A stretch of 64,000 bases of DNA, from NCBI GenBank assembly GCA_035221665.1, contig CM069132.1, positions 7,998,001 through 8,062,000 of the forward strand, read 5' to 3'. Origin of the DNA: Okamejei kenojei. Lineage: Eukaryota. Of the stretch, positions 714 through 63,585 are shown piece by piece (the first letter of the stretch is position 1; every line of letters begins with the position of its first letter). The position numbers and the translations under genes were made by a program. The notes below the pieces were generated by a model. That model made no database searches, was not told the DNA's origin, and saw only the letters and a program-made list of their open reading frames with translations.

Positions 714-1457
714 GACCCTGCAACCGCAGGAGATGCAACACCTGTCACTATATCTCCTCCCTCGACACTGTTCAAGGTCCCCGACAGTCCTTTCATGTTA
801 GGCAGAGGTTCATTTGCACCTCCTCCAACCTCATCTACGGTATCCATTGTTCAAGGTGTGAACTCTTAAACATCGGCGAGACCAAACGCAGACTGGGTGA
901 TTGTTTTGCTGAACACCTTCGCTCAGTCCGCCTGGACCTACCTGATCTCCCTGTTGCCAAACACTTTAATTCCCCTTCTCATTCCCACACAGACTTTTCT
1001 GTCTTAGGCCTCCTTCATTGTCACAGTGAGGCTAAATGCAAATTAGAGGAACTGTATCTCATATGTTGCTTGGGCAGCTTACAGCCCAGTGGTATGAATA
1101 TTGATTTCTCTAACTTCAATTAACCCTTGCATCCCCCCCACTCTCTCTCTCCATCCCTCCCCCACCAAGTCATATCAGCTTAAAAGTCGTCTTGTTGAGT
1201 CTCATTGTGTGTAACTTGTTCTCAACAAACCTAACAAACAGCTATGGCCTGTTTCCTTTATCATTTTTACCTTTTTGCACATCTTTCATTTATTTTCTTC
1301 TATATCTCTCTACATCACTGTCTATATCTTGTTTCCCTTTCTCGACTCTCAGTCGGAAGAATGGTCTCCACCCGAAACATTCCTTCTCTCCAGAGATGCT
1401 GTCTGACCCGCTGAGTTACTCCAGCTTTCTGCAGTATCTGCAGTTCCTTCCTACACC
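714..1457 (+). mobile_element. Penelope-like element 3' fragment (decayed GIY-YIG region plus pLTR tail)
   Basis: Plus frame near 809-920 reads CTSSNLIYGIHCSRCELLNIGETKRRLGDCFAEHL (GIY-YIG-like), followed by the ccagagatgctg...ctgagttactccagc tail and a degenerate hammerhead core near 1351-1380. Confidence 0.75.
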
Positions 1458-1816
1458 CTACAATAAGGCATCTGGCTGCTTGTCTTTATTTGCATTATGG
1501 AAGTCAACATGCCTGATGTGTTTAGATTTGCAAGCAATTAGTTAATCTGGAAAGGATTTACATCGAACAGTCTCAATCATTTTGCCACTTGGCTTTTTCC
1601 ATGCAATACTGGAAGCAATTTTGACCAGAGCAGTAGGATAACATGGTTGAGTCTATCATTTAAATTTTGATTTGACATATTCAATACAGTTTTAGATCAA
1701 TTCTTACAAACGTGTACACTTTAGGATTCGGGTCAATAACATTAACAATGGCTAATTGTAAGCACCACCGCCCACAGATGGACAGATGTGAATGTGATGC
1801 ACTGCTAAATGCATTA

Positions 1817-2124
1817 AAGGTCTGTCCCACTATACGAGTTTACCCACGAGCTCTCCCGAGTTTCAAAAAAAAATCAAACTCGTGGTGAGTATGTTGAATG
1901 TACGTAGCGGGTACGTCGGAGCTCGGGACGTCTCTTAGCGGCTCATAACGCTAACGGCAGGTACTCAGGAAACGCGGTAAGCTCGTGAAGTTTTTGCAAC
2001 ATGTTGAAAAATGTCCACGAGAGCCCCGAGTACCTACGAGCGGCTATTACCGTAATTCTCCGAGTTCAAATCAGGGGAAACTCGGGAGAACTCTTGAATT
2101 ACCTCGTACAGTGGGACAGGCCCT
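1817..2124. mobile_element. PIF/Harbinger-like MITE
   Basis: Long imperfect TIRs (ctgtcccactatacgag / ctcgtacagtgggacag), TTA on both flanks (1814-1816, 2125-2127); same family at 30782, 47754 and 55739. Confidence 0.75.
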
Positions 2125-2471
2125 TTAGCATTGAACAAAAAGGCAACATTGTGTGCAATCTCCAAAGGAATTCTATAATTTGATTGCTTCTCAATACTTA
2201 TCATGACGTTCTCCTTTATAACTTTATGCTAGTTCTTGCAGCTATTGTGCAAGCAAAAAACTGGCAAGCTTTTCCAAAGCTTCTGATCACTCTGGCAGTG
2301 CCAACAGATAAACGTAATCATCATTGGCGAGATAATACTGTTTCAACGACCAAAGTTCAAAAGAATCATCAGGTGATTAAACTTGAATAATTTTGAAAAG
2401 AAGAAATACATAATAGATTGGAATTTTTTGTTTTTAGCTAATTAGCCCATTACTGGGAAATAATACTTTAC

Positions 2472-2557
2472 CAGAGAACATTGACGAGTCGTGAGTGAAA
2501 TCCTGCATCTCCCCAAAGGCTCGTTTTTTACTGTTGTCTACATTGCCTTCTTCGATC
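2472..2557 (-). CDS. Candidate internal coding exon of an unidentified host gene (86 nt): (R)IEEGNVDNSKKRAFGEMQDFTHDSSMFS(G)
   Basis: Minus strand: pyrimidine tract ttattttttttgttcaag acceptor, CTG|gtaaag donor, only one open frame, non-repetitive sequence; phase 2 start, phase 1 end. Confidence 0.55.
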
Positions 2558-2829
2558 CTTGAACAAAAAAATAAGATTGAAAGATACTGTAAGTGACCAA
2601 TGGACTTACGGGGAGAACAAAAAAAAAATCCATTCAGCAACATTTTGTGCCACCTCCTTTCAGTCAAGCAATTTTTTTTAATGGATCTTAGATCTAAGGC
2701 AAGATGGTGCCATGCCCATGGCAGAACATTATTTTCTCATCTTGATCACAAAAGATCGAAGCTCCAAAATAAGAAATGAGGTTTACAAAATGAAGGTATA
2801 AAATATGTTAGTTGTATAAGAGAAGCGAG

Positions 2830-7712: not shown

Positions 7713-7713
7713 G

Positions 7714-8480: not shown

Positions 8481-9828
8481 ATCAAGTTGCTAGTTTAAAA
8501 AAACTGCAGTTTATAAACTGGCTGATGTATGTTCTATATTATAACATTAATTAATTATGCCTTTGAAACTACTCCAGTGAAGCACTTTGGGAGGATCTGA
8601 AGCTGTGAAATTTTTAAAATTTCATTTACATTTCTCTGTCCAAGTTATTATCGTTGCTAGAACTTCTAACTAAGCTTTGTTAAAGATACAAAAAAGCTGC
8701 TGTTAATATTGTGTCAAAACTAAACCACAGTTCCAACCGATGATCCACCTCCTCAGGTATCACTCATGTTACTTTTCAGAGTATAAAACAACTTTACACC
8801 AACACGTATTTGATTACACTATTTTCAAAACCAATGAAAACCTTAACTTTAACTGAATGTGTTTATTGATAATCTGAGAGCAGCAGTCTGATTTTTGAGG
8901 CAACAGCACTCTCGTTCAACCTCGTTCAACCTCTCGTTATACCTCGTTCAAATAATAATGCAATGTCTAAAACTCATTTCCAATTATGTCCTTGTTGACT
9001 CATTCATTCTTTGGAGTCATAAAACAAGTGAACCTAGTATCTCACAATGAAGCAATATTCCAAAATATTATCCTGTCTGCAACCAAGATACAGGAAATAA
9101 AATGATGTGATATCCTTGAACTTGCAGACTGAAAATGAAACAACACTCTGAACCAGAATGTGAAATATGACTTGGTTTTGCTCTCTTTTAAGGACTAAAT
9201 GTAAATAAAAACGTATGCAAAAATAACCCATTTTACTGTGATTTTATCACCTTCATCGAGGATATTTTTGGCAGTCTATTAGCAAAATGAAATAGATTTA
9301 GAACATGTCGCCACTGATCACAATCAGGATCCAGTCAAGGTTAGCCCGTAATCCTCAGGGCATTGTTCACCATTTCTGGTCTATGGGTGGAAACTTCCCA
9401 CTGCAGCAGCTGTAACCTTGTCATCAAAACACAAATGTTCACAAAAACATCTGGTGTTTAATTCATGTTCGGGATAATGATACTAATATTAGCTTAACGC
9501 ACAAAAAAATGACAACAATATACTTTCTATAGCGAGAGTTCACTTGATTTAATTACTGCTGATTTGCATGCAATCAGTGCACCTGTTTGCGAGCCTGCAA
9601 ACACTGCAGGCTCACTGGGAACAGTTTTACACCCACCGTTCAATTTGCATTCTGATGTTTCCATACAGTTATCTTCTGATCATTTAGTACCTCTACCTTT
9701 TTGTCTTAGACTTGTTGAACAAAGTGATGCTCCTTCCAGCGCTTTCTTTTTATTGAACAACCTGAAAGGTTGAGATTCCAGCCTCCTCTTCTTTTTTTTT
9801 TGCTTAGGCAGACAGCGGAAATTCCAAA

Positions 9829-11480: not shown

Positions 11481-12856
11481 AAAAGTGCAGCGGGGGCAAT
11501 GTGGTGGAGGACTTTGGTTTTGCTATTCTGTATCGAAATTTGGGAGACTGGTGGTCAGTCAGGCAAAGTCCTGACGCAGGGACTCGAGCCAAATACTGAT
11601 AGTTTCTTCCCCACAGATGCTGTTTGACCTGCTGAGTTTCTCCAGCCATTTGATTTTTGCTATTACTGGCTCTGTTGGCCTGGAAGAAGACAGACATTGG
11701 TTCCCTTATCCATCCAGCTAATTGAGGGTTTTATGGAGGCAGTGTTGGTAGTGTTTTCCCAATGCCTTGAGGAACTTGCTGCGGATAATCCAGCTTTCAG
11801 CAACAAATGGATTACCGTTCCCCATGAGCAGGTTGGGAGTTTTGTACTAGGCCCAATAACTTGATCTTCCAGACCCGAAACGTCACTCATTCCTTCTCTC
11901 CAGAGATGCTGCCTGTCCTGCTGAGTTACTCCAGCATGTTGTGTCTATCTTCGGTGTAAACCAGCATCTGCAGTTCTTTCCTGCGCATCTGGATCTTCTA
12001 AGATCCTTTTCCAAAAGGATGTGTTGTTGCATTGAAGGTGGTGGCCAGTTTCATCATCAACAAAGCCAAGAGGTGGTATCCAAGGTACGGGAAGTGTCAC
12101 ATTCTCCAATGTCTCACCATGATGTTTTCTGCTGAAGGCCGATCTGTTGCCGTGGGGTCAGATCAATTGTGTGCTTCCTCTTGCAGGTAGCGTCGTGCAG
12201 CACGGAAACATGCCTTTTAGCCCAACTCATCCATGCTGACCAAGATGCTGCTTCTTAGCTAGTTCCAGATACCCACGTTACCCCAGATCTTGATTTACAA
12301 CCCTAGTCTTGTATCCTTCAGCCGGTCCAAACATTTTGAACCTTTCTTTAACTCTCCCTCAATAAATCATTCCCTCTTATTTTTTTTCCCCATGTCGGAA
12401 TTAATTCTCACTCTAATTTATACTTTCTCTTGCATGCTTACACTGTTAATTTCATAATTCTTTAACTCGATTCGTTGGTGAAATGCAGTTGCTTTCCCGG
12501 CTCACCCGGAGAGGGTGTTTCTCCACTGATTTCAGTCCGGATTTTCTGAACTTGGTTTGTAAAATAGCAAGTCTCGCACTAGACCCAGTTTGATATCTTG
12601 GGAAAGCATAACATTTCTAAAATTACATTATGTAGTGTTGAAAAACATTTACAGCTCTAAATACTTCACATTTTTGCACCTCCTGCAGTACATATCAACT
12701 TTTTTTGAAAAACAAATTCTAAAATTGTAGTACTTTTTTGCTTTTATTCTTGTGATTATAATAATCAAAATTATGTACAATACGGTCTATTTTCTAGTTG
12801 GCATATTCACAAACATGCTGGGAGCACAGCAAGCTGAGAACAACTGTGGGTCATAC

Positions 12857-19016: not shown

Positions 19017-19067
19017 GGCTAAGAAAGTTCCAATGGCTACTCTATCCAATGTACAGAAGATGCATGA

Positions 19068-19273
19068 AAATAGACACAAAAAGCTGGAGTAACTCAGCGA
19101 GTCACATAGCATCTCTGGGGAAAAGGAACAGGTGATGTTTCAGGTCGAGACCCTTCTTCTCAAGAAAGATCCTTCTTCTTTTCAAGAAGGGTCTCGACCC
19201 AAAATGTCACCTATTTCTTTTCTCCAGAGATGCCATCTGACTCGCTTAGTTAGTTCAGCTTTTTGTGTCTATT
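19068..19273. mobile_element. Head-to-head inverted pair of Penelope pLTR tails
   Basis: aaaatagacacaaaaagctg... / ...cagctttttgtgtctatttt arms of about 90 bp with degenerate hammerhead cores at the centre. Confidence 0.7.
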
Positions 19274-19324
19274 TTCGTGCATCTGTACAAGTTAGAACTT
19301 ATTTAACCGGATCCCCGCTTATTT

Positions 19325-26596: not shown

Positions 26597-29189
26597 ATAA
26601 TCTTTTTAAGCCTTATTGGCCATAAATGAGTAAATTATCAATCATTCTGACTTGCAAGGAAAAGAAAAGTGAAAATACACAACTACTAAATAAATAACTA
26701 ACAACAATTGTTGCCTTCGGGAGGTGTGTTTGATGGTATACATGGTAGAGGTCGGTCCATTCTAACGAAAATCTGCTTTCTAGGAGGTCCATCACTGCGA
26801 GGGTTCATTGTGTAAAAATATTCTGAAATAATCTTAAATGTTCATTTTTCAGCGCTTCATTGCAAAATACAAACCATTTATATTTTTGGCCCCAACTGTA
26901 TAGAGAGAATGATCTTCTCAGATTAATCTGACCCAAGTAATTGAAAACTGCTCACAAATCTCGCAACTATTTACATGGCCACTTAAAAAGGCAAATGTTT
27001 ACATGGGAAGTGAACAGAATTCAAATTAATCACTTGCAGCTTGCATTAATCACAGCATGCAAGGCAATCCAGACAGTTATGCCAAAAAGCAGGCATATGT
27101 CAGAAGTTTTTGCAACAGTTGTTACTAAGCACCCATTCGCCAGTTTCTGATGCTCCACAATTGGTTTGGCAGCACCAAAAACTGTTCAGACACATGCACA
27201 ATACAACTGTCACAAAAATACATCCTGTGCAAACGAGCAGCACGTACAGGAGAAAAGATTAGCTACTTTGAGTTCTCAGTTTACTCAGTAGCATTCTGAA
27301 TCACACAAGGAGAAATGTAAACAGAATTGAAAAAAGCAACTGCTATGCCAAGTTAACAGTTTTCAGAGTGTGAATGAACTGATTTAATTAGCACCTTTTA
27401 CAAAAGGATCAGATATGCAAGTCTCCTCAAATGAATTGAATTTAAACTGCGAAGCTTAGTGAATGGCGCATTGCACAGTGAATGGGGAATTGAAGGCTAA
27501 AGTTCTTGCCATATCAACTGCTTGGGATACTCATGTAATTAACATTCAAACTGCACGCAGCAACCTACAAGGGATTTATTTCCTTCACCTTTTTCTTGCT
27601 GTTTCAGCTATTTCTACAGGAAATGAGTGCAGTAACCCAACCAATGTCCGTGCATACTTCCAGGGAATGGAGACTCCACCAGACAAAAGAAGGAATAAAC
27701 AAAAAAAACAAGGTTATCAATGCAGAAAACCAGCCATGGATTACAACCCAGCTAGACACAAAATGCTGAAGTAACTCAACAGGACAGGCAGGAATGGTTG
27801 ACATTTCAGGTCGAGACCCTTTTTCAGTTTGTCTCCTATTATTGGATAGGAAGGAACTGCAGATGCTGGTTTAAACAGTAGACACAAAAAACTGGAGTAC
27901 CTCAGCGGGTCAGACAGCACCTCTGGGGAAAGGGAATAGGTGACTTTTCAGGTCAAGACACTTCTTCAGACCCTTCATGTCTCCTATTAACTTCAAACAC
28001 CTTTATTAACTTGTTGCAAATGTTATCATATTCCAGATATCAGATAGCACAAGCAGCACCAGAATCTGTTACAACCTACACATTTGTATTGAATTTACTG
28101 CGGGGGGGGGGGGGGGGGGGGGGAGCAAGACATGCGGCCATGCTACCTGCAAAACAGATTACACAGATACAACGTTACAGTACCATATTCAACTCATTTG
28201 TCAAAGAACACCACGTTCTTCAAAGTAAACATTGCCTATTTCCTTCACTCCATAGATGCTGCCACACCCGCTGAGTTTCTCCAGCACTTTAGTCCACCTC
28301 CAAGTTCTTCAATACGATTTTCATGTAATAAATTTGCGATGACTTCCATTTACTAGCAATTTATTTTCCAAATGTCAGAGTCTCCTGACCCCAATAAAGT
28401 CTTAAAGAGCATCAGAATCGCCTGTTCTCTAAGAGGATCGGGAACCCTCCTCTTGATTACCACCTACTGTCCTGACTCAAATAGTTAATCAATGCTTTCT
28501 TACGACTGAACAGTACTTGGAAGAAGTATTGAATGTAGCAACGTCACAGAATGTATTCTGTATGATCAACTTCAATGTCTCAACCATCTTCTCATCTGCT
28601 TAATCAAAGACCCTTCACTTGGCTGAATGAGTGTAGCTCAACATTTTGAACATTGACTTCTCTAACCTCTAGCCCTTGCTTTCCCTCTATCCTACACACA
28701 GGAGGGACAATTTTTACATTTACCAAACCATTTAACCTACAAACCTGTACGTCTTTGGAGTATGCGAGGAAACCGAAGATCTCGGAGAAAACCCACGCAG
28801 GTCACGGGCAGAACGTACAAACTCCGTACAGACAGCACCCGCTTCTCAGTTCTCCTACCTGTCTTACTGTCTCTGACTACATTTTATCTTTGTACCGTCC
28901 ACTCCCCTGACATCAGTCTGAAGAAGGGTTTCAACCAGAAACATCGCCAGTTCCTTCTCTCCAGAGATGCTGCCTGTCCCGCTGAGTTACTCCAGCATTT
29001 TGTGTCTATCTTCAATTTAAACCAGCATCTGCAGTTCCTTCCTACACATCTTTCCGGACAAAGCAGCCCACTTTATTGAAACCCCATCCATTGCCTTCAA
29101 CATTCTTTCCCCTCTACTATCAGTGTACGGAGACTGTATATGTAACTATCTACAAAACATGCTTTGGATGTTCAGTTGGGCAACTCAGT

Positions 29190-29501: not shown

Positions 29502-30514
29502 CCAATCTCCAAAATCCGTGGCATCATGCACCATGAAGGGAAAGGGCAACAAAGGCATGGGAACATTATTACCCCTGTTGGAAATGGCCATGAAAAATGA
29601 ATACACTTTTACAGAATTGAGCAAATTACAAATCTGGATTGTCAACCGATTTGATCAAGGAAACGAGGAAAATTATGTGAGGGGTTAGTTAATATTATAT
29701 TTGTTGAAGTAATCTGATTTTCTTTGCAGCTTTTAGAACGGACTGTCGTCTGGTAATGAATTGCAGGAAATGTAATCCAAAGCGATTCACAGTTTAACAA
29801 AAGGTCAAGAATTGCAAAAGACGAACACTCAACTAAACCTACTTTTTTTTTTGCATCACCAGAATGGATGGTCCCAGAGGACTATATATATTAATCTGCA
29901 TTTATAGAAAAGGAGAAGGAGAAACCCAGCAACTTTGGTTAAACGATTTGGATGACAATGCAATTAGAATGGTTAGCAAATTTGCAGATGGCACCAAACT
30001 TGGCAGCACAGTGCACAGTGAGGAAGGCGACTTAAGTTTACAAAAGGACCTGGTTCAATAAGGATGTGGGCAAGGAACAGCAGATGGAATACAACTGGAA
30101 GAAATGTGAGGTGATGCATTTGGACAGGGCTGGGCTTTCACTGTAAATAATAGGAGAATGTTGTAGGGCAGAGAGGCCAAGGGATAAAGATACACAGTTC
30201 CCTGAAAACAGCAACACATGTAAACAAGAGCGGCAAAGAAAATTTGGGGGTATGCTTGCCTTTATCAATAAGGGTATTAAGTACAGGTGTGTAGGAAAGA
30301 ACTGCAGATGCTGGTTTAAATCGAAGGTAGACACAAAATGCTGGAGACAGGCAGTCATCGTCAGACTGAAGAAGGGTCTTGACCCGAAACGTCGGCCATT
30401 CCTTCTCTCCAGAAATGCTGCCTCACCCGCTGAGTTACTCCAACATTTCGTGTCTACCTTGAATAATGCAACACCAGTACATTTAGACAGGTACATGGAC
30501 AGAAAGGTTTAGAG

Positions 30515-31270: not shown

Positions 31271-32049
31271 GTTTAGAGGTATAAGAGCCAAACCAGTAAT
31301 TAGTTATAAAACCAGATGACCTGACTCTCAGACTCAATAATCCAAGAGAGAATAGAATGGTTTTGGAAATGTATGCAGTAACAAATAGTCATTAAGGGTT
31401 TGTAATGGCTAAATTATGTTTCACGAACTTCATCAAGTTGTGAATTATGAAGCATTGTACAAGCTCAGCAGATCAAGTCAGGGAAATTTCACCTCCACAA
31501 ATGCTGCCTGATCCGCTAAGTTGCTCCAGCACTTGTTTTTTCGCTTCGTATTCCAGTATCTGCAGCCTCTTTTGCCTTCATCAATTTATGTGATGAAGAG
31601 GATTGATGAAGAATGTGTCCGTTTCAAATGTACACTTTAAAAAATAATTTGACAAACATCTCTTTATAGATGTTACAACAAAATCAAGGCCAGTAGGATT
31701 ACGGGAACAGAGAACACGGGATTACGGGAACATGACAACAAGGATACAAAATGGGGAAGAGGATCTTTCATGTCAAAAGTCATTTTTTGAGGCATGTCCT
31801 TGTGTCCAGATAAATACTTTAAAAATGCTGTTATTATGGAAACGTACAAAATGCAGCAGCTAATTTGTGGAATGAAAACTTCCACAAACAATAATACAGT
31901 AATGATCATAATTGGGGTTTTTTTGTGATATTTTGAGGGGAATAAATTTGACCTGAACACAAAATTGAGAACAATGGTCAATGGCTGTTTATGTGTAATG
32001 GAGGAGCTGTATGGTGATCTTCTCCATATTTATTATTAAGCCCAGTTTA

Positions 32050-32313
32050 CACCTCAACGGTATGAACATTGACTTCTCCAATTTCAGGTAGTCCTTGCTT
32101 TCTCCCTCCTTCCCCTCCCCTTCCCAGCTCTCCCTCAGGCTACTGTATCCGCCTCTTCCTTTCTTCTTCCCGCCCCCATCAGTCTGAAGATGGGTCTCGA
32201 CCCGAAACGTCATCTATTCCTTCACTCCATAGATGCTGCCTCACCCGCTGAGTTTCTCCAGCATTTCTGTCTACCTTCGATTTTTCCAGCATCGGCAGTT
32301 TCTTTCTTAAACA
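32050..32313 (+). mobile_element. Penelope-derived pLTR insertion with 20-bp TSD
   Basis: ttattattaagcccagttta at 32030-32049 and 32314-32333. Confidence 0.8.
32180..32215 (+). ncRNA. Minimal hammerhead ribozyme core (Penelope-associated)
   Basis: CTGAAGA-T-GGGTCtcGACCC-GAAAC-GTC. Confidence 0.55.
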
Positions 32314-32446
32314 TTATTATTAAGCCCAGTTTATTTGGTTCTAGGTTAATCGTCTAGATTTGAGTATTAAATACAAGTTTGCTACTGGCCTTTAGAATAC
32401 AATTCTTCTGCAACACGCTAACAAAATTAAATGACAATAAGACATA

Positions 32447-32747: not shown

Positions 32748-33618
32748 ACCAGAACATGAGAGTTTTAGGTGGGCAATAAAATAAAGATCTAAAAAGGATG
32801 TTTATTGATTTAACTATTCTTTTATTTGTTCAAAGAAAAGGAGGAAATTTGACAATGAATCACCGTGATAACTGTGATCTGTGCAAGACTGTTTCTATTT
32901 ATGTACAACCTGCATCAGTATTGTCAGTGAACCTGAAATGATGTCAGATTACAGGAAATCACAATCTCCTGCAGGGAAATTTAACGATAACAATCCAAAT
33001 ACATCAGCATCCAACTGACCCATAGCTGGTTTACAATTACAAACACATATTCCCTTATGAACATGGATTACATTACTCATTACATGTCTCGGACAGGTTT
33101 GGAGGGATATGGACCAAGCGCAGGCAGATGGGAATAGTGTATCTGGGACATGTTGGCCGGTGTGGGCAGGTTGGGCCGAGGGGCCTGTTTCCACACTGTA
33201 TCACTCTATGACTCTGTCTGTAGCAATTATATTGAAATGAAGAGAATACATTTTAAAAACAGGTAAAGACCAATTTTAACAACAGATAAAGACCAATCAG
33301 ATGAGTAATCGGTATCACGTTAATTAAATCAGACAAACTGCTACTGAATAGTCTGTAATAAACTCATTTAAAATTGATGGAGAGAAGGAATTGGCGACGT
33401 TTCGGGTTGAGACCCTCCCTCAGACCGTGTCTCAACTCGAAACGTCGCCGTGTTTTTAATCATCATTATTACGGCCATTACCTCTATCAGAAACATGGAT
33501 GTCAAAAATATACACAAAGATAGACACATAAAGCTGGAGTAACTTAGTAGGTCAGGCAGCATCTCTGGAGAAAAGGAATAGGTGACTTTTCGGGTCGAGA
33601 CCCTTTTTCAGAGCACTA

Positions 33619-36180: not shown

Positions 36181-36742
36181 TATACAAGCAGGCGCAACAT
36201 TATACCTGGTTGGAAAATTCCGTTTGCTTGCTGCTAAGTGCTATCAAACAACAACTGAAACTGCATTTGGTAAAAACAAGATCAAGTTCAGCTACTAGTT
36301 TCGCTTCGCAAATTATCACCACACACAATTAAGGTTGCTGGAGGTAATATACGCTATATGAATCACTGACTTCTGGAAAGAAGAAAGAGAGACAAGATGA
36401 GCATTAAAAGAATGACGCAAATCTAAATTAAATTTATTTTTAGATTGTCTTGCTCTTAAGGTTTACACGTGTGAATATTTTGTGATACTAACTTGATTTC
36501 ATTTTGAAGAATTCCTCTTTCATCAGATTCCCTTGTACCATCTCCATGGATCGCTAACTTTACATCCTGCACCAGGAAGATAAACACAGTTATAATTCAA
36601 TTATTTTTTGCTTAATTCCCAGGAAGGAGAAACAATACTAACAGAATGGAGCATGAATAGGGCGTGATTATGAATGCATTCTTATGTCTATTATTGTTTT
36701 TTAATCACCTCAAGAAGGAAAAGGAATAAAGAAAATGGGACA

Positions 36743-36985
36743 TGTAGGAAGGAACTGCAGATTCTGGTTGAAACCGAAGATAGACAATAAAGCTGGAGTA
36801 ACCCAGCGGGTCAGACAGCATCTCTGGAGAAAAGGAATCGGTGACATTTTGTGTCGTGTCGAGACCTTTCTTCAGACATATGACCAGTCTGAAGAAGGGT
36901 CTTGACCCAAAACATCACCTATTCCTTCTCTCCAGAGATGCTGTCTGACCCACTGAGTTACTCCAGCTTTTTGTCTGTCTTCAAA
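36743..36985. mobile_element. Head-to-head palindromic Penelope pLTR dimer
   Basis: About 100-bp inverted arms centred near 36880; flanked by aaatgggaca repeats. Confidence 0.75.
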
Positions 36986-37001
36986 CTAAATGGGACAATC
37001 G

Positions 37002-37179
37002 ATACTTTTTTGCATATCTTTCATTCATTGTTCTTTATCTCTCCACATCACCGTCTATATCTCTCGTTTCCCTGATCCCTGACCAGTCTGAAGAAGGGTC
37101 TCGACCCGAAACGTCGCCTATCTCCTTCGCTCCTTAGATGCTGCTGCACCCGCTGAGTTTCTCCAGCCTTTTGTGTACC
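37002..37179 (+). mobile_element. Penelope pLTR insertion with 16-bp TSD
   Basis: ctaaatgggacaatcg at 36986-37001 and 37180-37195. Confidence 0.8.
37084..37119 (+). ncRNA. Minimal hammerhead ribozyme core (Penelope-associated)
   Basis: CTGAAGA(37088-37094)-A-GGGTCtcGACCC-GAAAC-GTC(37113-37115). Confidence 0.6.
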
Positions 37180-37922
37180 CTAAATGGGACAATCGGTTGG
37201 CAAAGCACAAGAGAGGGGCGGTGTGAGAAGGATATAAATAATGACATTTTGGAAAGCAATGATTACTGCTATGGTAAAATAATGTGGCAAAATTGACAGA
37301 GAGCAGGTCCCATAACAGTAGCAACCGATCACTCTGATTTTGGTCCTGATGGTTACAGTCCTAGCTTGTCTCCGATGCCAACACTGCGTACTCCTCCTGG
37401 AACTCTGTCATGCTACGTTAAACCACTATGTGAATCTCCCGTATAGAGAACAGATTCCCAATTAAAGTATCACCTAAAGAAGAGTGCCTCAAGAAATGCA
37501 ACATTTCCACAGTATTGCAATCAGCAGTTTAAATTGTATGCTCATGCTCTACAAGCGTATTTGGTTCCATAATCTTGTGAATCAAATGGGGTTGCTCCAT
37601 CAACTGCCCAGCTGAGGCAAAGAACGCAGGAGGTGGATAATTATAGTTCCTTGAAACCTGCTCAGCAAAAATGTATTGAAATAGGCTGTGCAAATGTTGC
37701 TGCAATTTTCGTACAATTAAATGTAATTGTATCTTATATTTCTCCTGGTTTACGTTTTTTTTTTAAACTATGCGTCCTGCAGCCACACAGAGGATAGAAG
37801 ATGAATCCCTACTTAATTAGTCCAATTTACTGTTGTGTGGATAGCATCTGCCGGGTCTGCTGAGTTGCTCCAGGACATTGTTCATTTGCTCAATATCCCA
37901 GCATCTTGCATCTGCGGTTTAC

Positions 37923-48670: not shown

Positions 48671-50014
48671 TCGCTTCATGTGTAAAATTCACCCAAGTTT
48701 TTTTACTGTGTGCTATGAACTGAACATTAGGCAAAGAAATGCCCTGGTATGTGCTATAAAAATATGTAAAATGCATTTAAAACATTTTTAAACAACAAAT
48801 TATCATGTGCCATGTTCAATGTTATTTCCTCACATCATAAATTGCTGTATGGAATGTATTTTGCTTTATTACTTTTTTGATATTTTTCTTTTGATATATG
48901 ATCCCAATTTACCAACTCTCATTTACAACTGCTTTCTCAATCTTTTAATCTTGTAGCATAGGGCTATAGTATAAGTCCTGCTGCATATAAATTACTGCAG
49001 GCCTAATTCAGGAGATGAATTAACTTATTAGATAGATAGATGGACACTGAAAGCTGGAGTAACTCAGCAGATCAGATTAAAGTAGGGTCATGACCCGAAA
49101 CGTCAACTCCAGAGATGCTGTCTGACCCGCTGAGTTACTCCAGCTTTTTGTGCCTATCTTCGGTTTGAACCGGCATCTGCGGTTCCTTCCTACTGGATTA
49201 ATTTCTTAGCACAGATTACACAGAAGAGTGTTTACAGGATTATGAATTGCAGTTAAAGGCTGTGTGTGCAAATGTGTGTTGACTTGACAGTGAAAGTAGG
49301 GAAGACATTTAGAGACTAGTTGTGTGGTTCTTCTGACTTGAACACAGGAAGTTAATTGTGTTATCTAAAATACAGAGTTATATAAAGGGGGAGGACATTA
49401 TTTTTTAAGGATCCAACCTACTCAATCGAAACTGTGAAAAAAGAGGCAATACAAACCACACGAGAACATATGACAGCACCCGTAGTCGGGATCGAACCCG
49501 GGTCTCCGGCGCTGCAAACACTGTAAGACAGAAACTCTACCGCTGCGCCACTGTGCCCCCCTCCCCGTCACCCTGTGACCTGCGTGGTTTTCTCCAAGAT
49601 CTTAGGTGTCCTCCCACACTCCAAAGGCGCACAGATTCGTAGGTTTGTAGGTTACTTGGCTTGGTACAGTTTGAAGTGCCTGATTCCGTGCTGTATCTCT
49701 AAACTAACATAAACGCATTCTAAAATTTGTCAGGGACTGAAATGAGAAATGTCTTCATACAGAAGGTAGTGAACCTCTGTAATTCTCTACTCCAGGGGGC
49801 TATAAAGGCTCAGTCATCGAGCTCATCCAAAGATTCAATAACATCCAGAAATCCTGGGAATTCTTTATGCAGGAAAAATATATTAAGGTAGAAGATTAGC
49901 CATGATCTTGATCTTTAGCAGCCTCAAAGGACCTAAAACTACTTCTGCTCCCATTTCCTATACCCTTATTTACAGTTCAAGTTTTTTTTTGTCAAACCTA
50001 TTATGGTATACTGG

Positions 50015-50640
50015 ATGTTTAAGAAAGAACTGCAGATGCTGGAAAAATTGAAGGTAGACAGAAAATGCTGGAGAAACCCTGCGGGTGAGGCAGCATCTAT
50101 GGAGAGAAGGGATAAGCGACATTTCAGGTCGAGACCCTTCTTCAGGCTGAGGTCGGGGGAGGGGGGCGGATGGTAAAAGAAAGGAAGAGGTGGAGACAGT
50201 AGGCTTGTGGGAGAGCTGGGAAGGGGAGGGGAAGGAGGGAGAAAGCAAGGGCTATCTAAAATTAGAGGTCAATGTTCATACTGCTGGGGTGTAAACCACC
50301 TAAGCGAAATATGAGGTGCTGTTCCTTCAATTTGCGCTGGGCCTCATTGGCAATGGAGGAGGCCCAGGGCAGAAAGGTCAGTGTGGAAATGGGAGGTGTT
50401 GGACGAAACGATCACCGAGCCTGCGCTTGGTCTCGCCGACGTAGAGTAGTTGGCACCTAGAACAGCGGATGCAGTAGATGAGGTTGGAGGAGGTGCAGGT
50501 GAACCTCTGCCGCACCTGGAAAGACTGATTGGGTCCTTGGATGGAGTCGAGGGGGGAGGTAAAGCAACAAGTGTAGCATTTCCTGCGGTTGCGGGGGAAA
50601 GTATCCAGGGAGGAATTGTTTGGGAAGGGACGAATTGTCC
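50015..50640 (-). mobile_element. Penelope-like element fragment (GIY-YIG region plus pLTR)
   Basis: RRKCYTC...QRFTCTSSNLIYCIRCSRCQLLYVGETKRRLGDRF in ORF 50378-50899. Confidence 0.8.
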
Positions 50641-50664
50641 AGGGATGGTCTTTTACTTTGACAT

Positions 50665-52239: not shown

Positions 52240-54744
52240 TACGTGCGATATTATTTATGCCCTCCTGTGTGAAGACAGAATTGTTTTGATTTATGATTTC
52301 CATTGTCCCTGGCTGTAGGGGGCTGATATTAGTCCTTATTCCCCACCTTCACAACTCTTACTGTTTGAAATAGTTCATCTGTCTTCTGGCAAACTGATAG
52401 TCGAGATCCACGAACTGATCCTGAAACTGCAAACCACTCAAATTACCTCAAGTATCTCTCAGACTCCTAACCACCTCCAATGCACCAATATGTCCTTTAT
52501 TTGACCAGGACCTCAAGCTCATGTTCAGCCAAGGGCCAGTAGTCCCACTCCTGTGTGTGCTTCCAATTCATTGATGACCCATCGGAGGCTCCTCAGAGCA
52601 CTTATGAAAAACCACCAAAGTCACCTCCAAACTCACTTACAGTATTATCCTAACAAAGTTGTAGAACACAGAATGTTTAATGCCTGTTAACATAGTGTTT
52701 CAATGCCTGTGTATGACATTTGATTACTCTGGCCCTTTATTAAAAATCTAGCTTACAGCTCAATGTTTGGAGGGAAATGAACAGACAATATTTTGAGTTG
52801 ACACAAAAAGCTGGAGTAACTCAACGGGACTGGCAGCATCTCTGGAGAGAAGGAATGGGTGACGTTTCTGGTCAAGACCCATTCCTTCCCTCCAGAGATG
52901 CTGCCTGTCCCGCTGAGTTACTCCAGCTTTTTGTGTCTATCTTTGGTTTAAACCACATCTGCAGTTCCTTCCTAGACAATATTCTGGACCGGGTGGGACC
53001 CTTCTTCAGGGTGCTGATCATAAGTTACGCCTGTCCATTTACCTCCACAGAAGATGCCTGACCCATTTTTTTTTTAATTTGGAAACCACCATTGATTAGC
53101 GCAGTATCCAAATGACAAAAGATAATTCAAAACATAGTATAAACATAAAATTAGGAAAAAAATTACAAGTAATCAGACTGTTAGTTTTGATCTCTGGTTC
53201 CATGATGAAATGCAGTGCAGAGAGCATTGTCTACATTTCACCTGGCCATCAAACCACTCTGTAACTTTCATTGACATGGACCATGACAACTGATTAGCAA
53301 GTGCTCCATTATTTACAAATGTCATTGAGAACATTTGATGCAATCTGAACAAACATGATTGCAACACTGCCCTGTCATTTGCCCCAGAAAGTAATCACGA
53401 TGTTTTGTCATGAAAACTTAAAAAGGTTGGGACGGTACATGTGTTCTTTTCTCCTCCTGTTCACGCTATCTGCTTTATTCCTGTGAGAAAATGACTCAAA
53501 ATTAAAATTACAAATTAATGGAAGAAAAAAACTAATGCTTAGAACAAATTTCAACTATGAATTCTGATACGGATTCTATTAGGGTCTCAGAGTATGTCTA
53601 TGGTTGCACTGTGTCAGTAAAAGCAATTCTTTTTAAAAAAAAGAAGAAATTGGCAGGTCAACAAGAAAATACATATGTTGGTTCAATGATTATTCTTCTC
53701 AGGGTAAAAATATTTTGACAGGAGAAAACTTCTATTTGCCAACACATTTTACTTTATTGCTTTAATTGCTTTCAATATTTCTTCTCCAGTTTTATGCACT
53801 TGTCACAAATAATTTCTGGGAAAATGTAAGAAATATTTCCAAAAATAAGAAACTTTGTACCAGGCATCACACTGGAAGGAAGCAAAGCATGTCTATATAC
53901 CATGCCATTAAAAATGTATGTCTACACACATTTCCTGTCATGTGGCTATCATACTGATGATTGCTGCTGTTTTATTTGATGCCAACAAGAACCAAGAGGT
54001 GCAGAGAGTACAAAAGAAATCAGGCAAAGTGCCAATAAAATTAACAGAGAGACAACTAATTAATTATAGAAGCAGCAAATTGGAGAGATGGAAAATAGGC
54101 AACGTTTCGGGCCGAAACTCCTCTTCAGACTATTTCCTTTGCTCCATAGATGCTGCTGCACCCGCTGAGTTTCTCCAGCATTTTTGTCTACTATAGAAAC
54201 AGCAATCCTGATTAACTAGCTGACGAAAGACAAAGCACGCTAGATTGTTGAAAACATTGTTTGAAGAAAAATATTTTAAATGCCTCTGGATTCTCTCAGC
54301 GAATGGAATAGTTTCAATGAGATCTCTAACACAAAGACAACAGAAATAAAAATACTATTTCACTTCGACAATTGAGTGTGCAATGTGGCACTTTATAAGT
54401 TTGAGTGCAAAAATGTTTGTCTTCAGCCTTCATCGGTATCTGCATTTGCGATACAAAAAAGCCAAGGGATGAATTCCAAAAGCTACAGTAAAGTAAAACA
54501 AATTATGGATAAAACAAAAGTATGTGTGGGAACGTGCAAGAAATTGAAAGAAAAACAGCCCTTGCTTTTATTTTTGAATTCCAAAACAATCCCACCCCTC
54601 TCAGTATCAAAGTCAAAGTCTGTAATATTGTTTAATTCAATACTTTGATATGGAATCGATTACAAAGACATTGTTAGTTATTTAAGCCCGAACACAAAAT
54701 CAAAACTTTCTTTAAACTCAGACAAAATGTTAACCATGTAGAGT

Positions 54745-56068: not shown

Positions 56069-56489
56069 TTACACCATTATCCTCTGTTTCCCATCACCAT
56101 ACCATTTATGTATTCAATTTCAGGTAGACAAAAAGGTTGGAGAAACTCAGCAGGTGCAGCAGCATCTATGGAGCGAAGGAAATAGGCAACGTTTTGGGCC
56201 AAAACCCTTCTTCAGACTGATGGAGGGTGGGGGGGGATGGTGGGGGCGGGGAGAAGAAAGGAAAAAGGAGGAATCTCCCCTTAGATCCAATTTCCTAACC
56301 ATCCAAACCTCAACTTGCTATGAATCACTACCCCTATTCTTTGCAAGGTCAGAAGATATCATCCAAACCTGGTTGAAATAGTTAATATATTGATTATATG
56401 TCAAATATTCAAGCACTTCCATTTAAAAGCAGTTGTCCAGCCAAGGACAAGGATGGTTGGAACACATCCCTGGGTTCAGCCCTCACCTG

Positions 56490-56622: not shown

Positions 56623-57745
56623 AGCCCTCACCTGCAACAATCCCAAATTACAAGTTTTCTCCGAAATTCCCCGCTTCTCCCTCAATGCTGAATAATTTAT
56701 TCTTTGGTCAATAACGTGTGTACTCCTTCCCATCTCACAAACACCTTTGGATTTTTTTCCTCCCCTATGCTCCCAGATGCAAGGGTCACAAAAGAACAAT
56801 CTTAAAGTGATGGAGTAATTCAGCGGGACTGGCAGCATCTCTGGTTGAGACCCTAGTTCAGTCCCACTTTCAGACTCTTCAGACTTGAGTCTGATCCACC
56901 GTTTTTTCGCAACTTGTCGCTCCACTGCTTTTTCCGCAACTTACAGCATCTGCAGTTCCTTCCTACACAACCTTAAAGTGATCACAGTCTATATTTCTGT
57001 TTATTTCCCATGGATAGAAGTAAGTGGGCTGTGGAAGCACACCATCTCTCCACAGACGCAGACTATCAAGCAACACCTCTGCCTACCAATGAAGCCAGAG
57101 CACGCCCATTTTTGCTCAGTTCAGCCTTATCCCAAGTACGTCTTTTCACAGAGATGAAATAAAATCTGTCCGGCCCCGAGACATGATTTGGCGGTGCTGC
57201 AGTACCCAATGAATCGTGCCAAATTTCACTTCAAATACAAGATAGACACAAAAAGCTGGAATAACTCAGCGGGTCGGACAGCATCTCTGGAGAAAAGGAT
57301 TAGGCGGCGTTTCGGGGTCCGAAGAAGGATGTCGACCCAAAAGGTCACCTATTCCTTCCCTCCAGAGATGCTGCCTGTACCGCCGAGTTACTCCAGCTTT
57401 TTGTGCCTATCTTCTGTGTAAACCAGTTCCGCAATTTCTTCCTTCACTTCAAATACAGTTGTTTCTCTGGAGCATTGTTACATCTCAAAATTATGCTATA
57501 GTGCTCCTTAATCTCATAGTTATTCACAAATGGAACAAAACCTCCCATCTCAACCCCCGCATGAAGTGCTCACAGACACAAAATGTTTTAGTGTTTATTA
57601 CCTCCTCGTAGGCCCGGTAGGCTCCTCGTAGGCATGAACAACAACAGATCTCACATTGAAAGACAAAACCCTAGTACAATATGCTAACTTTCTAGAGTAA
57701 TCCTTGGTTAAAACTTGTATCTCACACTTGGCTGAAGTGGATAAT

Positions 57746-58004: not shown

Positions 58005-58739
58005 TTAGCATCGTGGCATTGGCAATAAGTCTATCCTCACTGCATATTACCTCCATTAACATTATAAATCCTATATTTGTATATGGTTTCTGTCAACATT
58101 TGTTTTTAAACATTGGAAAATATTTAATTTTGTTTTAATTGGCTGAGGGTTTTGTACTTCCCACAGGAGATTATGCATGAAACACTGAGGCACCTTCAAC
58201 ATTATTGTAGGATGACTGAGACAGACAGTCTTTTTCTGCAGATAGACACAAAATGCTGGAGTTACTCAGGGACAGGCAGCATCTCTGGAGAGGAATGGGT
58301 GGCGTTTCGGGTCACAACCCTTCTTCAGGCTGATCTTTTTTTTTTTGCACGTCTTCTTGCATATTAGTAACTTAAATGATTATGTGCAGATTAATACCAG
58401 AAACTGCTGGTGTCACCTTGCCATCCAAGTGGAAATACTGAAGGTCCATTATTAGCGCAATGATGGAATGATATTGGTAGTTCCATTCGGCACATGGGCA
58501 AATTAATAATGGAATTAGAGTGTGGGATTTCAAGCCAAGTACTGAAATACATCTGCACATTGTGGTCCAAACTAACCACAGGCCACTACGCTTATTAGCT
58601 ATACTTCATATTGCCCCAATATTTAACACTGTGGGGAAAATCACCTTGTAGATAAATAGTGAATCTTACTCACATCCTGCACAACTATACAATATTCCTA
58701 ACTGCACATTGTTAATAACAATTCCATCATGAAATTACC

Positions 58740-58978: not shown

Positions 58979-59706
58979 TTGTTCAATTTAGCATGAACAA
59001 CAACAGATCTCACATTGAAAGATAAAACCCCAGTACAATATGCTAACCTTCTGGAGTAATCGCTTGGTTAAAACTTGTATCTCACACTTGCCTGAAGTGG
59101 ATAATTTTGCATCGTGGCGTTGGCAATAAGTCTATCCTCACTGCATAAATCTTCTGCAGGCTTTCCACACAGTGGCATTGTTCCAGTCTCCTTACAATGA
59201 TGCCGTGCAATGCTTAATTCATTCAAAATATTGCAATCCAATTCCTTATTTAGTTTAATTTAGTTTAGTTTAGAGACACAGAGCGGAACCAGGCCCTTTG
59301 ACCCACCGAGTCCGCACCGACCAGCGATTAACACTATCCTACACACACTGGGGACAATTTACAATTATACCAAGCCAATTAACCTACAAACCTGTACGTC
59401 TTTGGAGTGGCGTTTAACCCAAGGCTGAGAGGGGGGGGTTAGAGGAGTGGGAATTCACAGGTCGGGGAGCCTTGGTCTGTAATAACCAAAATCCACTACA
59501 TAGAGGTCCGTTGTTGCGAAGCTTTACTGTAGTGCAAATAGGGAGAAACTTTTTCCCCAAAGAATGTGTCTATAACCAGGACAAGGTTTAAAGTAAGAAT
59601 AGAGATTAAGAACAGATTCGAGGAAGAAGCTTCTACCCAGAGGGTGGAAAGCTGAAACCTGGAATCTGTCGGAGATGGTGAAGGAAACAGGTACTCTCAA
59701 CACTCA

Positions 59707-59990
59707 GGACGGCACGGTGGCGCAGCGGTAGAGTTGCTGTCTTACAGCGCCAGAGAACCGGATTCGATCCCGACTACGGGTGCTGTCTGCACGGAGTTTG
59801 TACGTTCTCCCCGTGACCGCGTGGGTCTTCTCCGAGATCTTCGGTTTCCACCCACACTCCAAAGAACTCCAGGTTTGTAGGTTAATTGGCTTGGTATAAA
59901 TGTAAATCATCCCTAGTGTGTGTAGAATAGTGTTAATGTGCGGGGATCACTGGTCGGCGCGGACTCGGACCTGCATCTCTAAACTAAAAA
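59707..59990 (+). mobile_element. HE1/V-type SINE
   Basis: A/B boxes and V core; a partial minus-strand copy lies at 59250-59410. Confidence 0.85.
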
Positions 59991-60349: not shown

Positions 60350-62250
60350 GAGAAAGGAAGCATATACCAGATAAAGGCAGTTGGGATCAAGAGAGTCCCT
60401 TGAAGAGTTTGAGGAATGCAGGAGTACACGCAAGGAGGAAATTAGGGACCTATGAGATATCCCTGGAAGATAAGATTAAAGGAGAATTCAAAACGATTAC
60501 ATGAATATATTAAGAGTAAAATAGTAGCAAGGGAAAGAGGAAGTCTATGTGGTAACGTGGTAATCTATGCGCCAAGTCACAGGAAATGGGCAAGGTTTTC
60601 AATGAATACTTCATATCTCTCTATTTACTGTGGAGAAGGACATGGAAGCTAGTGATATCAGGAGAGGAAACAGAGATATCCTGCAGCACATTAACAATAT
60701 GCAGGTGGTAGTGTTGGAGGTCCATTAACAGAAAGGTGGATAAATGACCAGATGCATCCCAAGACGTTTTGAAAAGCAAGGGAGGGGATTACTGGGGCCC
60801 TAGAAGATATTTTTGTACCTTTGTTACACACATATGAGGTACCGAATGAGGATAGCTAATGTTGTGCTTTTATACCAGGGCAAGACAACCCAGGGAACTG
60901 CAGGCTGGTGAAGTTTACTGGAGGGGAGGTTAATGGAAGGGATGGATTTATTTGCCTTTGGAAAGGCAAGTGCTTATGAGGTGGCTTTGTGTATTGGATA
61001 TTATGTTTCACAAATGTAACATTTTTGAAGGAATGATCAAGGGGATTGACGAGGGCAAAGCTGTAGACATTGTCTACACATGGACTTTAGCAAGGCCTTT
61101 GACAAGGTCCCACATAATATGCTAGTCCAGAATGTTTGAACACACGAGATCCAGTGTGAGCTGGCCGAATGATACAAAATCAGCTTGGTAGTCACTTGGT
61201 CTACACTGGGAGCAGCAGTGTAGCTGTGGAGGACTGTTTTGCAGATTGGCGGCCAGTGACCGATGGTGTGTTTTAGAAATCAGTGCTGGTCTTCTGCTTT
61301 TGTCATATTCTTCCGTTCCAACGTCGAGTTTCCATCTTCCCGGCGAGAGGGCCTGAACATCAGCGGCGAATGCGGTGGCCCCGACCAAGAGGAAGGAAGA
61401 TGACTGAACTTTATTGCCTTCCCTCATAGTAGGGAAACGTTGATTCCGCTGTGTGGGGATGTTTATGTTAAATTCTATTGTGTGTTGTGCTCTTTTTATT
61501 CGTATGTCTGTATGGCAACCCAAATTTCACTGTACCGATTGGTGCAGTGACAATAAATGCAAACTTGAACTTGATATATGAACAATTTTGTTGAGAATAT
61601 ATGGTAGGTGGCAATGAAAAGTCAGTTTTCTGGTGACAGTGGAAGTGATGGTACAGTGGACAGTGAGGAAGGTTGGCTAAAGTTACAACAGGATCTCGAT
61701 CTAATGGGAAACGGACAAATGGAATTCAACTTTGACAAGTGTGCAGTGTGGCATTTGGAGAAGTTAAACCAAACATACACAGGGAATGACGGGGCCCAGG
61801 AGAGTGTTGTCGGACAGATTGGTATTGTTGAACAATGGGTATAAGTACAGAGTTCCCAAAAGCAACAACACTGATAGACAGGGTCATGAGGACAGCATAT
61901 GGTGTGATTACCTTCATCAGCTGAGACATTTAATACTAGATTAGCATGTCATGTTACAGTTGCACAAAATACTTATTTGACCACCTTTTGAGTGTTGTGT
62001 GCAGATCCAGTGGCCACACTATAGGTCTGATGTGATTAAGTTGGAGAGGGTGCAAAGAAGATTCACAAGGATGTTGCCTGGAGGGCTGGAGTTATAAGGA
62101 GAGGAGAGATTGGATAGGTTGAGTTCATTTTCCCTGGAGCAAAAGATGCTGAAAGGTGACATGCTAGAGGTATATAACATTATGACATTTACATAAGTTG
62201 GACAGCCAGAGTCTTGCCCATGATAGGAATGTCTAAAACTAGAGGTGGCA
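60350..62250 (+). mobile_element. Old, heavily decayed CR1 ORF2 with a GC-rich retroelement insert at 61310-61572
   Basis: IKENSKR..YIKSK, atggactttagcaaggcctttgacaaggtccc (DFSKAFDKV), LERVQRRFTRMLPG. Confidence 0.75.
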
Positions 62251-62254
62251 TAGG

Positions 62255-62562
62255 TTCCATTGCCCGATAACAGCTGGGAATAAACTGTCCCTGAATCTGG
62301 AGGTGTGCGTTTTCACACTTCTATACCTTTTGCCCAATGGGAGAGGGGAGAAGAGGGAATGGCCAGGGTGCGACTCGTCCTTGATTATGCTGCTGGCTTT
62401 GCCGAGGCAGCGTGAGGTATAAATTGAGTCAATGGAAGGGAGGTTAGTTTGTGCAATGGTCTGGGCTGCGTCCACAATTTACTGCAATTTCTTGCGTTCT
62501 CAGTTGGAGCTGTTCCCAAACCATGCCGCGATGCATCCCGATAAAATGCTTTCTACGGCGCT
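62255..62562 (-). mobile_element. Rex1/Babar-type LINE 3' fragment
   Basis: DAAQTIAQTNLPSIDSIYTSRCLGKASSIIKDESHPGHSLF. Confidence 0.75.
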
Positions 62563-62795
62563 TCTGAGTTCCTCCGGCATTTTTGTCGACCTTCGATTTT
62601 TCCAGCATCTGCAGTTCTTTCTTAAGCCTGTAGACCAGAGTGTGGTCCACGTGTTGGAAGTACTGGAGCACCCATGATCCAGGTAAGCCCCAGGCTATGT
62701 TTAAGAAGGAACTGCAGATACTGGAAAATCGAAGGTACACAAAAATGCTGGAGAAATTCAGCGGGTGCAGCAGCATTTATGGAGCGAAGGAAATA

Positions 62796-62830
62796 GGCAA
62801 CGTTTCGGGCCAAAACCCTTCTTCAGACTG
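62796..62830 (-). ncRNA. Minimal hammerhead ribozyme core (second pLTR subfamily)
   Basis: Minus strand CTGAAGA-A-GGGTTttGGCCC-GAAAC-GTT. Confidence 0.5.
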
Positions 62831-63585
62831 ATCCGACCAGGCTGTGGCAGGCCACTGACTCGATAGATCCATGAAAAGGGTAAAATAGTAGATTCAAAGT
62901 CAGTAATGTGATGACCTCCCTCTATGTTGCAAACCTCTGTGATAAACTTCCAAGATAAAATAAGCCTCAATAAAAGCAGAAAATACTGAAACTGATAACA
63001 GGGAACATCTACTGGATAAAGGAACTGCTAAAGTTTCAAGCCTTGCCTCAGCTAATAAGAGTGCCCGAGACATACAAGTAGGTAATATCACCTTCCGGCC
63101 CCGGTCTCACCCTTACCTCTCACTTCTATATGTGTGGGGAGGAACTGCAGATGCTGGTTTACAACGAAGATAGACAAAAACTGCCGGAGTATCTCAGCGG
63201 GACAGGCAGCATCTCCTGTGAGAAGGAATGGGTGGCGTCAGTCTGGAGAAGGGTCGAAGAAACATCACCCATTCCTTCTCTCCAGAGATGTTGCCTGTGC
63301 CAATGAGTTACTCCAGCATTTTGTGTCTATCTTATCACTTCTATATACTGGTGGTGTTCTCTTCTCTCTGCACCCTGAGTGCACACTCTCAGACCTGGTG
63401 CAGGGTCTCAACTGTCCCATTGCCTTATAAATGCTGCTTGACACTGGGGTCTTCTAGCTGTCTCTCATTTGCTACAGATTCCACTATTTTTGTCTCCGAC
63501 TAATGCTGTTTCATATCACTGTACTGTAGGTTATCAAAGCAGACATGTTGGTGAGGGAACTGAAAAAAATGTAGTCAGCTGCAAA

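Follow-up and report, generated by a model that had tools for sequence, protein, structure and literature searches.

The question raised by a 64,000-nucleotide stretch of the Okamejei kenojei genome (GenBank assembly GCA_035221665.1, contig CM069132.1, positions 7,998,001 to 8,062,000, forward strand; here called the window, meaning the whole stretch) is what its many short repeats with a minimal hammerhead ribozyme core represent. Here, we report that they are very probably the terminal module of a Neptune-type Penelope-like element (PLE), the short copies being stunted insertions made by its own reverse transcriptase (RT)-endonuclease. The terminal module would consist of the hammerhead core, a downstream stem-loop, and an optional tail. 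A literature search, with Repbase and Dfam outside its reach, found no published description of this family or of the start peak described below.

Sampling and abundance

Positions were numbered with C3 of the CUGA core as +1 and no position 0, the predicted cut lying between +28 and +29. Copies were sampled over 1.46 Mb (120 stretches of 10 kb each, spaced evenly, plus the window and its surroundings, together 264 kb), which yielded 623 module matches. Copy length may be overcalled by the chaining step (the copy with its core at 37088 was called from -218, and its target-site duplication [TSD] shows -86). An exact 28-mer occurred 48,215 times in the 2.76-Gb genome (reversed control, 0), and the 455 module matches in the 10-kb stretches extrapolate to approximately 1.0 million genome-wide; modules made up about 3.6% of the sampled bases. 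No strand bias was seen in the 264 kb (49 plus, 57 minus).

Parent element

The Penelope origin proposed in an earlier reading of the window (the original prediction) was borne out, as the repeat is linked to one open reading frame (ORF) that has both an RT and a GIY-YIG endonuclease. Among 30 endonuclease-selected loci, the core lay downstream of the GIY-YIG stop codon in 21 (substitution-only match) and, by eye, in several more; the stop-to-core distance in 58 GIY-linked references fell into three groups, near 110, 190, and 240 nucleotides (nt). One locus (L009) continued into the RT, and in all 20 long-ORF loci a module on the same strand followed the RT match at about 1.3 kb, although in one locus the module was partial. 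Locus L167 was a partial tandem forming pseudo-long terminal repeats (pLTRs), in the order untranslated region (UTR), core, tail, ATG, RT-endonuclease, UTR, and core (unit, 3.96 kb), the long frame having its first ATG about 35 nt beyond the tail; tandem spacing of 3,962 nt was found on contig C5. Relatives of a 778-amino-acid frame were annotated with RVT_1 (PF00078) and GIY-YIG (PF01541), the closest named ones being from sharks and rays (55 to 63% identity), and a direct Pfam search of the element protein gave only a sub-threshold GIY-YIG match (E = 0.0017). By these tested features, the element is an endonuclease-positive (EN+) PLE whose pLTR holds a minimal hammerhead. A CX2-5CxxC linker, common to Neptune and Nematis, precedes the C-terminal endonuclease, and the linker and domain order would fit the clade Neptune (or Nematis). 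First-look candidates for the 3' end of the ORF (linker plus GIY-YIG) numbered 138,482 genome-wide.

Anatomy and kinship of the copies

Most copies were short and noncoding, as originally predicted; coding sequence was reached by 45 of the 623 modules and was absent from about 93%. Arms of head-to-head pairs accounted for 216 of the 623 matches (108 pairs), and the tail was on exactly one arm in 86 of these pairs. The 3' ends fell into two clusters, +90 to +104 and +125 to +131. In the first 864 kb of the sample, to which all TSD counts by copy class refer, TSDs had a median length of 14 nt (range, 9 to 21) and were found for 30 of 103 copies of the start-peak class versus 0 of 103 controls, and for 3 of 40 internally starting copies. 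The optional 30- to 40-nt tail, inverted 5' arm, and TSD are marks of PLE insertion, and two 3'-end classes and a tail on one arm are described for PLEs in the accessible parts of two accounts (PMC8557442, PMC11167929). Copying by the RT-endonuclease would begin internally, at two sites lying about 95 and 130 nt beyond the first base of the core, and would often stop near the 5' edge of the ribozyme.

Five of the six largest subfamilies held ORF-linked, UTR-truncated, and short copies together, and sites separating short from long copies numbered 3 in all. Because subfamilies are shared and distinguishing sites are few, the short copies appear to be mainly products of each autonomous lineage; comparison of the six largest subfamilies gave no SINE-like lineage apart from the autonomous element.

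Same-strand core pairs within 500 nt numbered 31 among 365 cores and were mostly separate insertions. At two places (L008/L241, G000:C1:466921; and G000:C1:2018411-2018521), same-strand cores were repeated about 40 nt apart, and these are natural candidates for dimer cleavage. A small stem-loop at +64 to +79 (37151-37166 in the window, and equivalents) was kept in all subfamily majorities except for its loop; with a possible longer pairing with the tail, it is a candidate protein-binding or RT-initiation element.

ORF-start copies and rolling concatemers

Out of 103 exact copies of the ORF-start region, 40 were analyzed, drawn from the first 52 listed after exclusion of two loci already known, one triple, one pair, and the second member of each close pair. 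Seventeen ran to the fetched edge (+365 or more), with 5' ends spread from beyond -420 to +128. The other 23 stopped at +185 to +339, and 22 of these were joined to a further module or UTR piece, suggesting that templates reach far 3' of where the RT starts, as they do in the anole element. In 6 of the 22 joined copies, the jump led from a point within -4 to +3 to a site 185 to 225 nt downstream.

Five of the 40 (listed in Table 1) repeated their own microhomology junction twice, with a different junction at each locus. Their units, 190 to 470 nt long, consisted of part of the UTR, the core, the tail, and the ORF start, making them rolling-circle-like products whose junction is not at the ribozyme site. 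An RT jumping from the 5' end of a short RNA back onto the same RNA would roll out such hammerhead concatemers. Two distant loci, L305 (G000:C7:8777404) and L308 (C7:49398341), had a common junction (+230 to -67), explained either by a non-autonomous unit that propagates or by a jump that recurred; 6 loci had a junction within +229 to +233. Among the matches listed, three ORF-start copies with a 485-nt period were found at G000:C7:91770616-91771628.

Start peak before the core

Copy starts were concentrated just upstream of the core, with 237 of 623 (38%) at -15 to -1, compared with 16 at +27 to +31, no more than at neighboring positions; exact starts numbered 21, 25, and 20 at -4, -3, and -2 and 1 at +29. 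Copy starts at the cleavage site were therefore rejected. Since starts cluster before the core and do not peak at the cleavage site, cleaved RNA does not appear to be the template; initiation would be internal, on uncleaved RNA, for which the anole Poseidon element provides an in vitro precedent.

The peak was equivalent in copies with and without the tail (52/159 versus 75/185), so it is set by position rather than length, and a fixed cDNA length was rejected because both 3' classes gave an identical peak. The bases at -5 to -1 were kept across UTR types, and we take them to resemble an initiator; a resemblance to a promoter element near +25, weighed against PMC2377424, was set aside. Splicing that would join a donor-like site ahead of the ATG to an acceptor-like CAG before the core (3 genome matches, 2 events) was rejected as the main source. 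The odds appear even that the peak marks the 5' end of short RNAs, begun at the initiator-like site 3 bases before the core, and this is the reading we prefer; these RNAs would terminate no more than a few hundred bases into the ORF region.

A G excess preceded the start genome-wide (710:624 versus a background of 0.63) and locally (12/21); among 30 loci chosen for having that G, 7 of the 8 simple cases had it outside the TSD. A local test at all positions, with all rows pooled, gave 10/25 versus 8.8 expected; a first G:A comparison (1,884 versus 2,626) was confounded by slippage and dropped. A general G excess, not specific to the peak, was present directly 5' of truncation junctions (G:A, about 1.1 to 1.3 versus 0.63 expected), possibly from untemplated addition by the element RT.

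Several observations weigh against the account given so far. The Neptune call comes from the cysteine linker, not from a tree. Only 3 of 52 UTR-truncated copies had an identified TSD, probably owing to less precise calling of their starts. One site in the youngest subfamily split short from long copies (18/20 versus 2/10; 17/24 versus 2/9 under a stricter definition), and, because of this split and the junction common to L305 and L308, some non-autonomous masters may exist. The start peak is broad (-8 to +3), and it has no cap signature, since control positions matched the G excess (266:209 and 7:6, both with slippage confounds) and a cap-derived G was not established. Finally, out of 14 copies running in from the ORF and passing -1, 1 stopped in the peak, versus 149/270 in the bulk (p = 4e-4). 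Because copies running in from the ORF seldom stop there, the start-site proposal needs short RNAs, and the stop near -3 would belong to freshly started cDNA.

The same absence of a peak in ORF-running copies (1/14) supports an alternative, in which the near-palindrome before the core would cause RT arrest, fold-back, or second-strand priming that comes too early, with the element protein still bound to the initiation region and no RNA 5' end at the peak. We regard this as possible, at somewhat less than an even chance. It is consistent with the lack of a cap signature and with the 87 of 108 head-to-head pairs that have an arm starting at -15 to +5, and palindromes at inverted junctions and self-priming have been proposed for rotifer PLEs, according to the accessible text of PMC3846280. 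Against arrest stand the 6 of 22 joined copies that leave the template at -4 to +3, in a manner suggestive of a template end, and a YCAGT motif before the core that is kept in subfamilies with otherwise different UTRs.

The original prediction had favored an independent, non-autonomous retrozyme/SINE-like family, which would replicate via hammerhead cleavage and circular RNA. The small number of modules that reach coding sequence, the concentrated starts, the rolling-circle-like repeats in 5 of 40 ORF-start copies, and the junction shared by two loci would all suit such a family, and the accessible part of Li et al. 2026 (10.64898/2026.07.22.740005) reports pLTR-related tandem retrozymes in one chondrichthyan. 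It is nonetheless improbable. Ends mismatch the cleavage site, the tail and inversion carry the PLE signature, ORF-linked copies occur in 5 of the 6 largest subfamilies, most copies are single, and cores decay at CpG rates; the concatemer junctions lie at microhomologies, differ among the five loci, and come from an ORF-start-selected set only. Tandem units each with a hammerhead, by which retrozymes are recognized, were absent among the window copies and present only in the rare concatemers elsewhere.

Hammerhead conservation and predicted activity

The expected features of a minimal type I hammerhead were present, namely, the catalytic core bases, an extra base after A9, G10.1-C11.1, and a palindromic helix III (ACGT) that is loopless; helix I was weak, as predicted, with 2 bp only. 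The 5-bp stem II originally described would force a 2-nt loop and is probably better read as 4 bp closed by a CUCG or UUCG tetraloop. Pairing in stem II was kept between subfamilies, as claimed, but through a one-sided change of U-A to U-G rather than a double compensatory change. Across 7 subfamily majorities, 0 of 11 catalytic versus 26 of 81 other positions were variable (p = 0.03), in line with conservation of the core over its flanks; when clustering was looser, a single core change appeared, at CpG G12 in a group of 6 copies. The helix changes across majorities (U-A to U-G in II, U-A to U-G in I, and C17 to U) were all one-sided and compatible with pairing or the NUH rule. Mismatch among 105 long copies was 4.3% for the core versus 5.9% for conserved flanks, the core being hardly better preserved, and G12 (a CpG site) was mutated in 31%. 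Every catalytic base and pairable helices were kept in 48 of 230 core-covering copies from random sequence, which extrapolates to roughly 100,000 fully retained copies genome-wide. We infer that selection on the hammerhead acted in active masters and not in the stubs.

Predicted folding placed a hammerhead-like monomer at -4.2 kcal/mol, above the minimum of -5.3, and an ACGU-paired dimer at -12.7, far above the dimer minimum of -19.7; fold z-scores ranged from -1.04 to +0.66. Single minimal hammerheads did not cleave in vitro, and dimers cleaved weakly, in the accessible part of PMC4209133 (dimer cleavage of PLE hammerheads by Lunse et al. is covered in a review excerpt, PMC6765202); the anole PLE ribozyme needed protein for cleavage and was dispensable for insertion in vitro (PMC11167929, in part). 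Cutting by the hammerhead here would need a dimer or the element protein. The module was abundant in poly(A) reads of a related species, where no read-end pile-ups at the module were seen and both strands were about equal (one raw poly(A) run, weak evidence).

In the dispersed copies, decay proceeds without selection, and cleavage of host RNA by them is unlikely. The proposal that sense-oriented copies act as intronic ribozymes on host pre-mRNA, to which the many fully kept cores and the abundance of the module in poly(A) reads could be credited, is very unlikely given the 2-bp helix I and loopless helix III, folding that disfavors active monomer and dimer, balanced strands, the lack of read-end pile-ups, the in vitro inactivity and protein dependence noted above, and the lack of a host gene (47 of 150 unique window frames scanned against Pfam, 0 matches, no host exon identified).

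Repeats in the window

The window held 42 module matches, exceeding the original list; 16 were arms of head-to-head pairs, and 3 reached GIY-YIG coding sequence (Table 1). All 22 listed sites exist. Four cores called intact were found in place (30366-30393 plus, 32184-32211 plus, 37088-37115 plus, and 62799-62826 minus), and 18 of 18 called degenerate lay within module matches to the profile of the surrounding module. A hammerhead descriptor requiring the core and 4 or more of the 5 stem-II pairs passed 8 window sites versus 0 in 200 shuffles. Catalytic bases, stem II, helix III, and a 2-bp helix I were all kept at 5 sites (32184 plus, 37088 plus, 50145 minus, 54128 minus, and 62826 minus). 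Intact status thus stood for three of the four cores and failed for 30366, which is without even a 2-bp helix I, whereas the cores at 50118-50145 and 54101-54128 (both minus), called degenerate, retain all elements. The claim that copies have their own TSDs held in part; among 22 insertion units tested, a TSD of at least 10 nt was found in 9, 7-nt matches (chance level) in 6, and none in 7. An Rfam scan of the window did not detect the hammerhead motif, its microRNA (miRNA)-like matches being fold-back pairs below threshold, and a PDB search gave no match.

Table 1. Hammerhead-module copies in the window (window positions) and rolling concatemers elsewhere in the genome (genome positions)
Position	Strand	Feature	Details
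716..1123	+	3' end of PLE ORF: cysteine linker C-x4-C-x2-C and GIY-YIG remnant	No Pfam match for this copy alone
1124..1456	+	3' UTR and decayed terminal module with tail, part of the ORF remnant at 716	Decayed core at 1351, 234 nt past the GIY-YIG end
11871..11986	+	Short copy starting inside stem II, tail present	
19055..19285		Head-to-head module pair	Cores cut
27737..27974	-	Two short copies	Core 27942-27969, helix III broken; 12-nt TSD around 27845-27974
28834..29047	+	Tailed, UTR-truncated copy	Core 28918-28945, helix III broken
30289..30466		Head-to-head insertion	Core 30366-30393 (+): catalytic bases, stem II, and helix III kept, no helix I
32030..32333	+	5'-truncated PLE: last GIY-YIG codons, UTR, core, tail	Core 32184-32211 intact; 20-nt TSD at 32030-32049 and 32314-32333
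33373..33613	-	Two short copies, both decayed	
36733..36997		Head-to-head insertion (36744-36987), tailed only on the minus arm	10-nt TSD
36986..37195	+	Tailless young-subfamily copy that begins 86 nt before core	Core 37088-37115 intact, predicted cut after 37115; 16-nt TSD
49038..49193		Head-to-head pair	Core decayed
50017..50601	-	5'-truncated PLE: GIY-YIG remnant (E = 0.002, below Pfam cut-off), UTR, core, tail	Core 50118-50145, pairable throughout, two G-U
52783..52983		Head-to-head insertion	10-nt TSD
54065..54205		Head-to-head insertion, UUCG-loop subfamily	Core 54101-54128 (-) intact; 14-nt TSD
56116..56280	-	UTR-truncated copy	G12 mutated
57225..57457		Head-to-head insertion	15-nt TSD
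58237..58334	-	Short copy starting just before core	U16.1 mutated
62698..62832	-	Short tailed copy that begins about 6 nt before core	Core 62799-62826 intact
63120..63346		Head-to-head insertion	12-nt TSD
G000:C1:112452810		Concatemer L276	TSD around array
G000:C2:42734627		Concatemer L281	TSD around array
G000:C2:108367326		Concatemer L282	
G000:C5:42634204		Concatemer L295	
G000:C6:67047870		Concatemer L300	

Other repeats included seven copies of a short interspersed element (SINE) family with a tRNA-like head and an (AAACT)n end (9828-10107, 18772-18987, 26320-26596, 29189-29501, 32446-32756, 42301-42616, and 59706-59968), which we take to resemble the elasmobranch HE1 SINE. Two long interspersed element (LINE) remnants were found, a CR1/L2-like RT piece at 4124-5008 (RVT_1, E = 3e-10) and, on the minus strand at 19637-20893, a 418-amino-acid open frame like the end of an L1/Tx1 ORF2 (zf-RVT below cut-off). 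A tandem repeat with a 39- to 45-nt unit lay at 22549-22806.

Comparison with known elements

The hammerheads resemble those described earlier for PLEs in their core, the extra base between 9 and 10.1, G10.1-C11.1, the loopless palindromic 15.2-16.2, the pLTR location, and their occurrence mostly as single dispersed motifs (ascribed to truncated PLEs) and opposite-strand pairs, but differ in a helix II of 4 bp plus tetraloop. Helix I has 2 bp, as in a D. virilis variant, whereas Schistosoma has 4 to 5 bp. The approximately 1.0 million modules compare with about 4,000 (coelacanth) and 9,000 (Xenopus) descriptor matches, counting methods differing; two supplement files of the earlier PLE-hammerhead survey held no shark or skate term.

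Neptune EN+ PLEs, in the accessible text of Craig et al. 2021 (PMC8557442), share the RT, the CX2-5CxxC linker, the C-terminal GIY-YIG, partial-tandem pLTRs with hammerhead, the inverted 5'-truncated arm, and a 30- to 40-nt tail at one end. The copies here differ in being about 93% noncoding and in that 38% start at most 15 nt before the core, no start peak being mentioned in that part of the account. The Anolis Poseidon element PAc (Frangieh et al. 2024, PMC11167929, likewise in part) shares two tail-defining RT start sites, a requirement for downstream RNA, uncleaved RNA as template, and no read ends at the cleavage site; its ORF starts inside the hammerhead, whereas here the first ATG of the long frame follows the tail.

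Metazoan non-LTR retrozymes (Cervera 2020, PMC7229834; Li et al. 2026), as far as excerpts of both describe them, are also noncoding, hammerhead-bearing, and PLE-related. Those of Cervera form tandem arrays, carry canonical type I hammerheads, and give abundant circular RNA, unlike the single or head-to-head window copies with minimal cores. The few concatemers found elsewhere fit the working definition that Li et al. 2026 give in the excerpt, namely, a hammerhead in every unit of a tandem.

Significance

The ribozyme finding itself is ordinary, since terminal hammerheads of PLEs are already described and most copies are dead. The share of the genome covered by the module is relevant to repeat annotation and to false hairpin or miRNA calls from fold-back pairs. 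The family is of value as a natural data set of very large size, bearing on a transposition cycle that is poorly understood; its genomic copies point to an uncleaved template, two internal start sites, and a frequent end at the 5' edge of the ribozyme. More tentatively, and with the chances rather against it, the roughly 1 million stubs could be a fossil record of internal initiation, in which short promoter-proximal RNAs would give "strong-stop" cDNAs and jumps from their 5' ends would give concatemers, that is, retrozymes born without ribozyme cleavage. A concrete path by which PLE ends could become tandem retrozymes is offered by the rolling concatemers.

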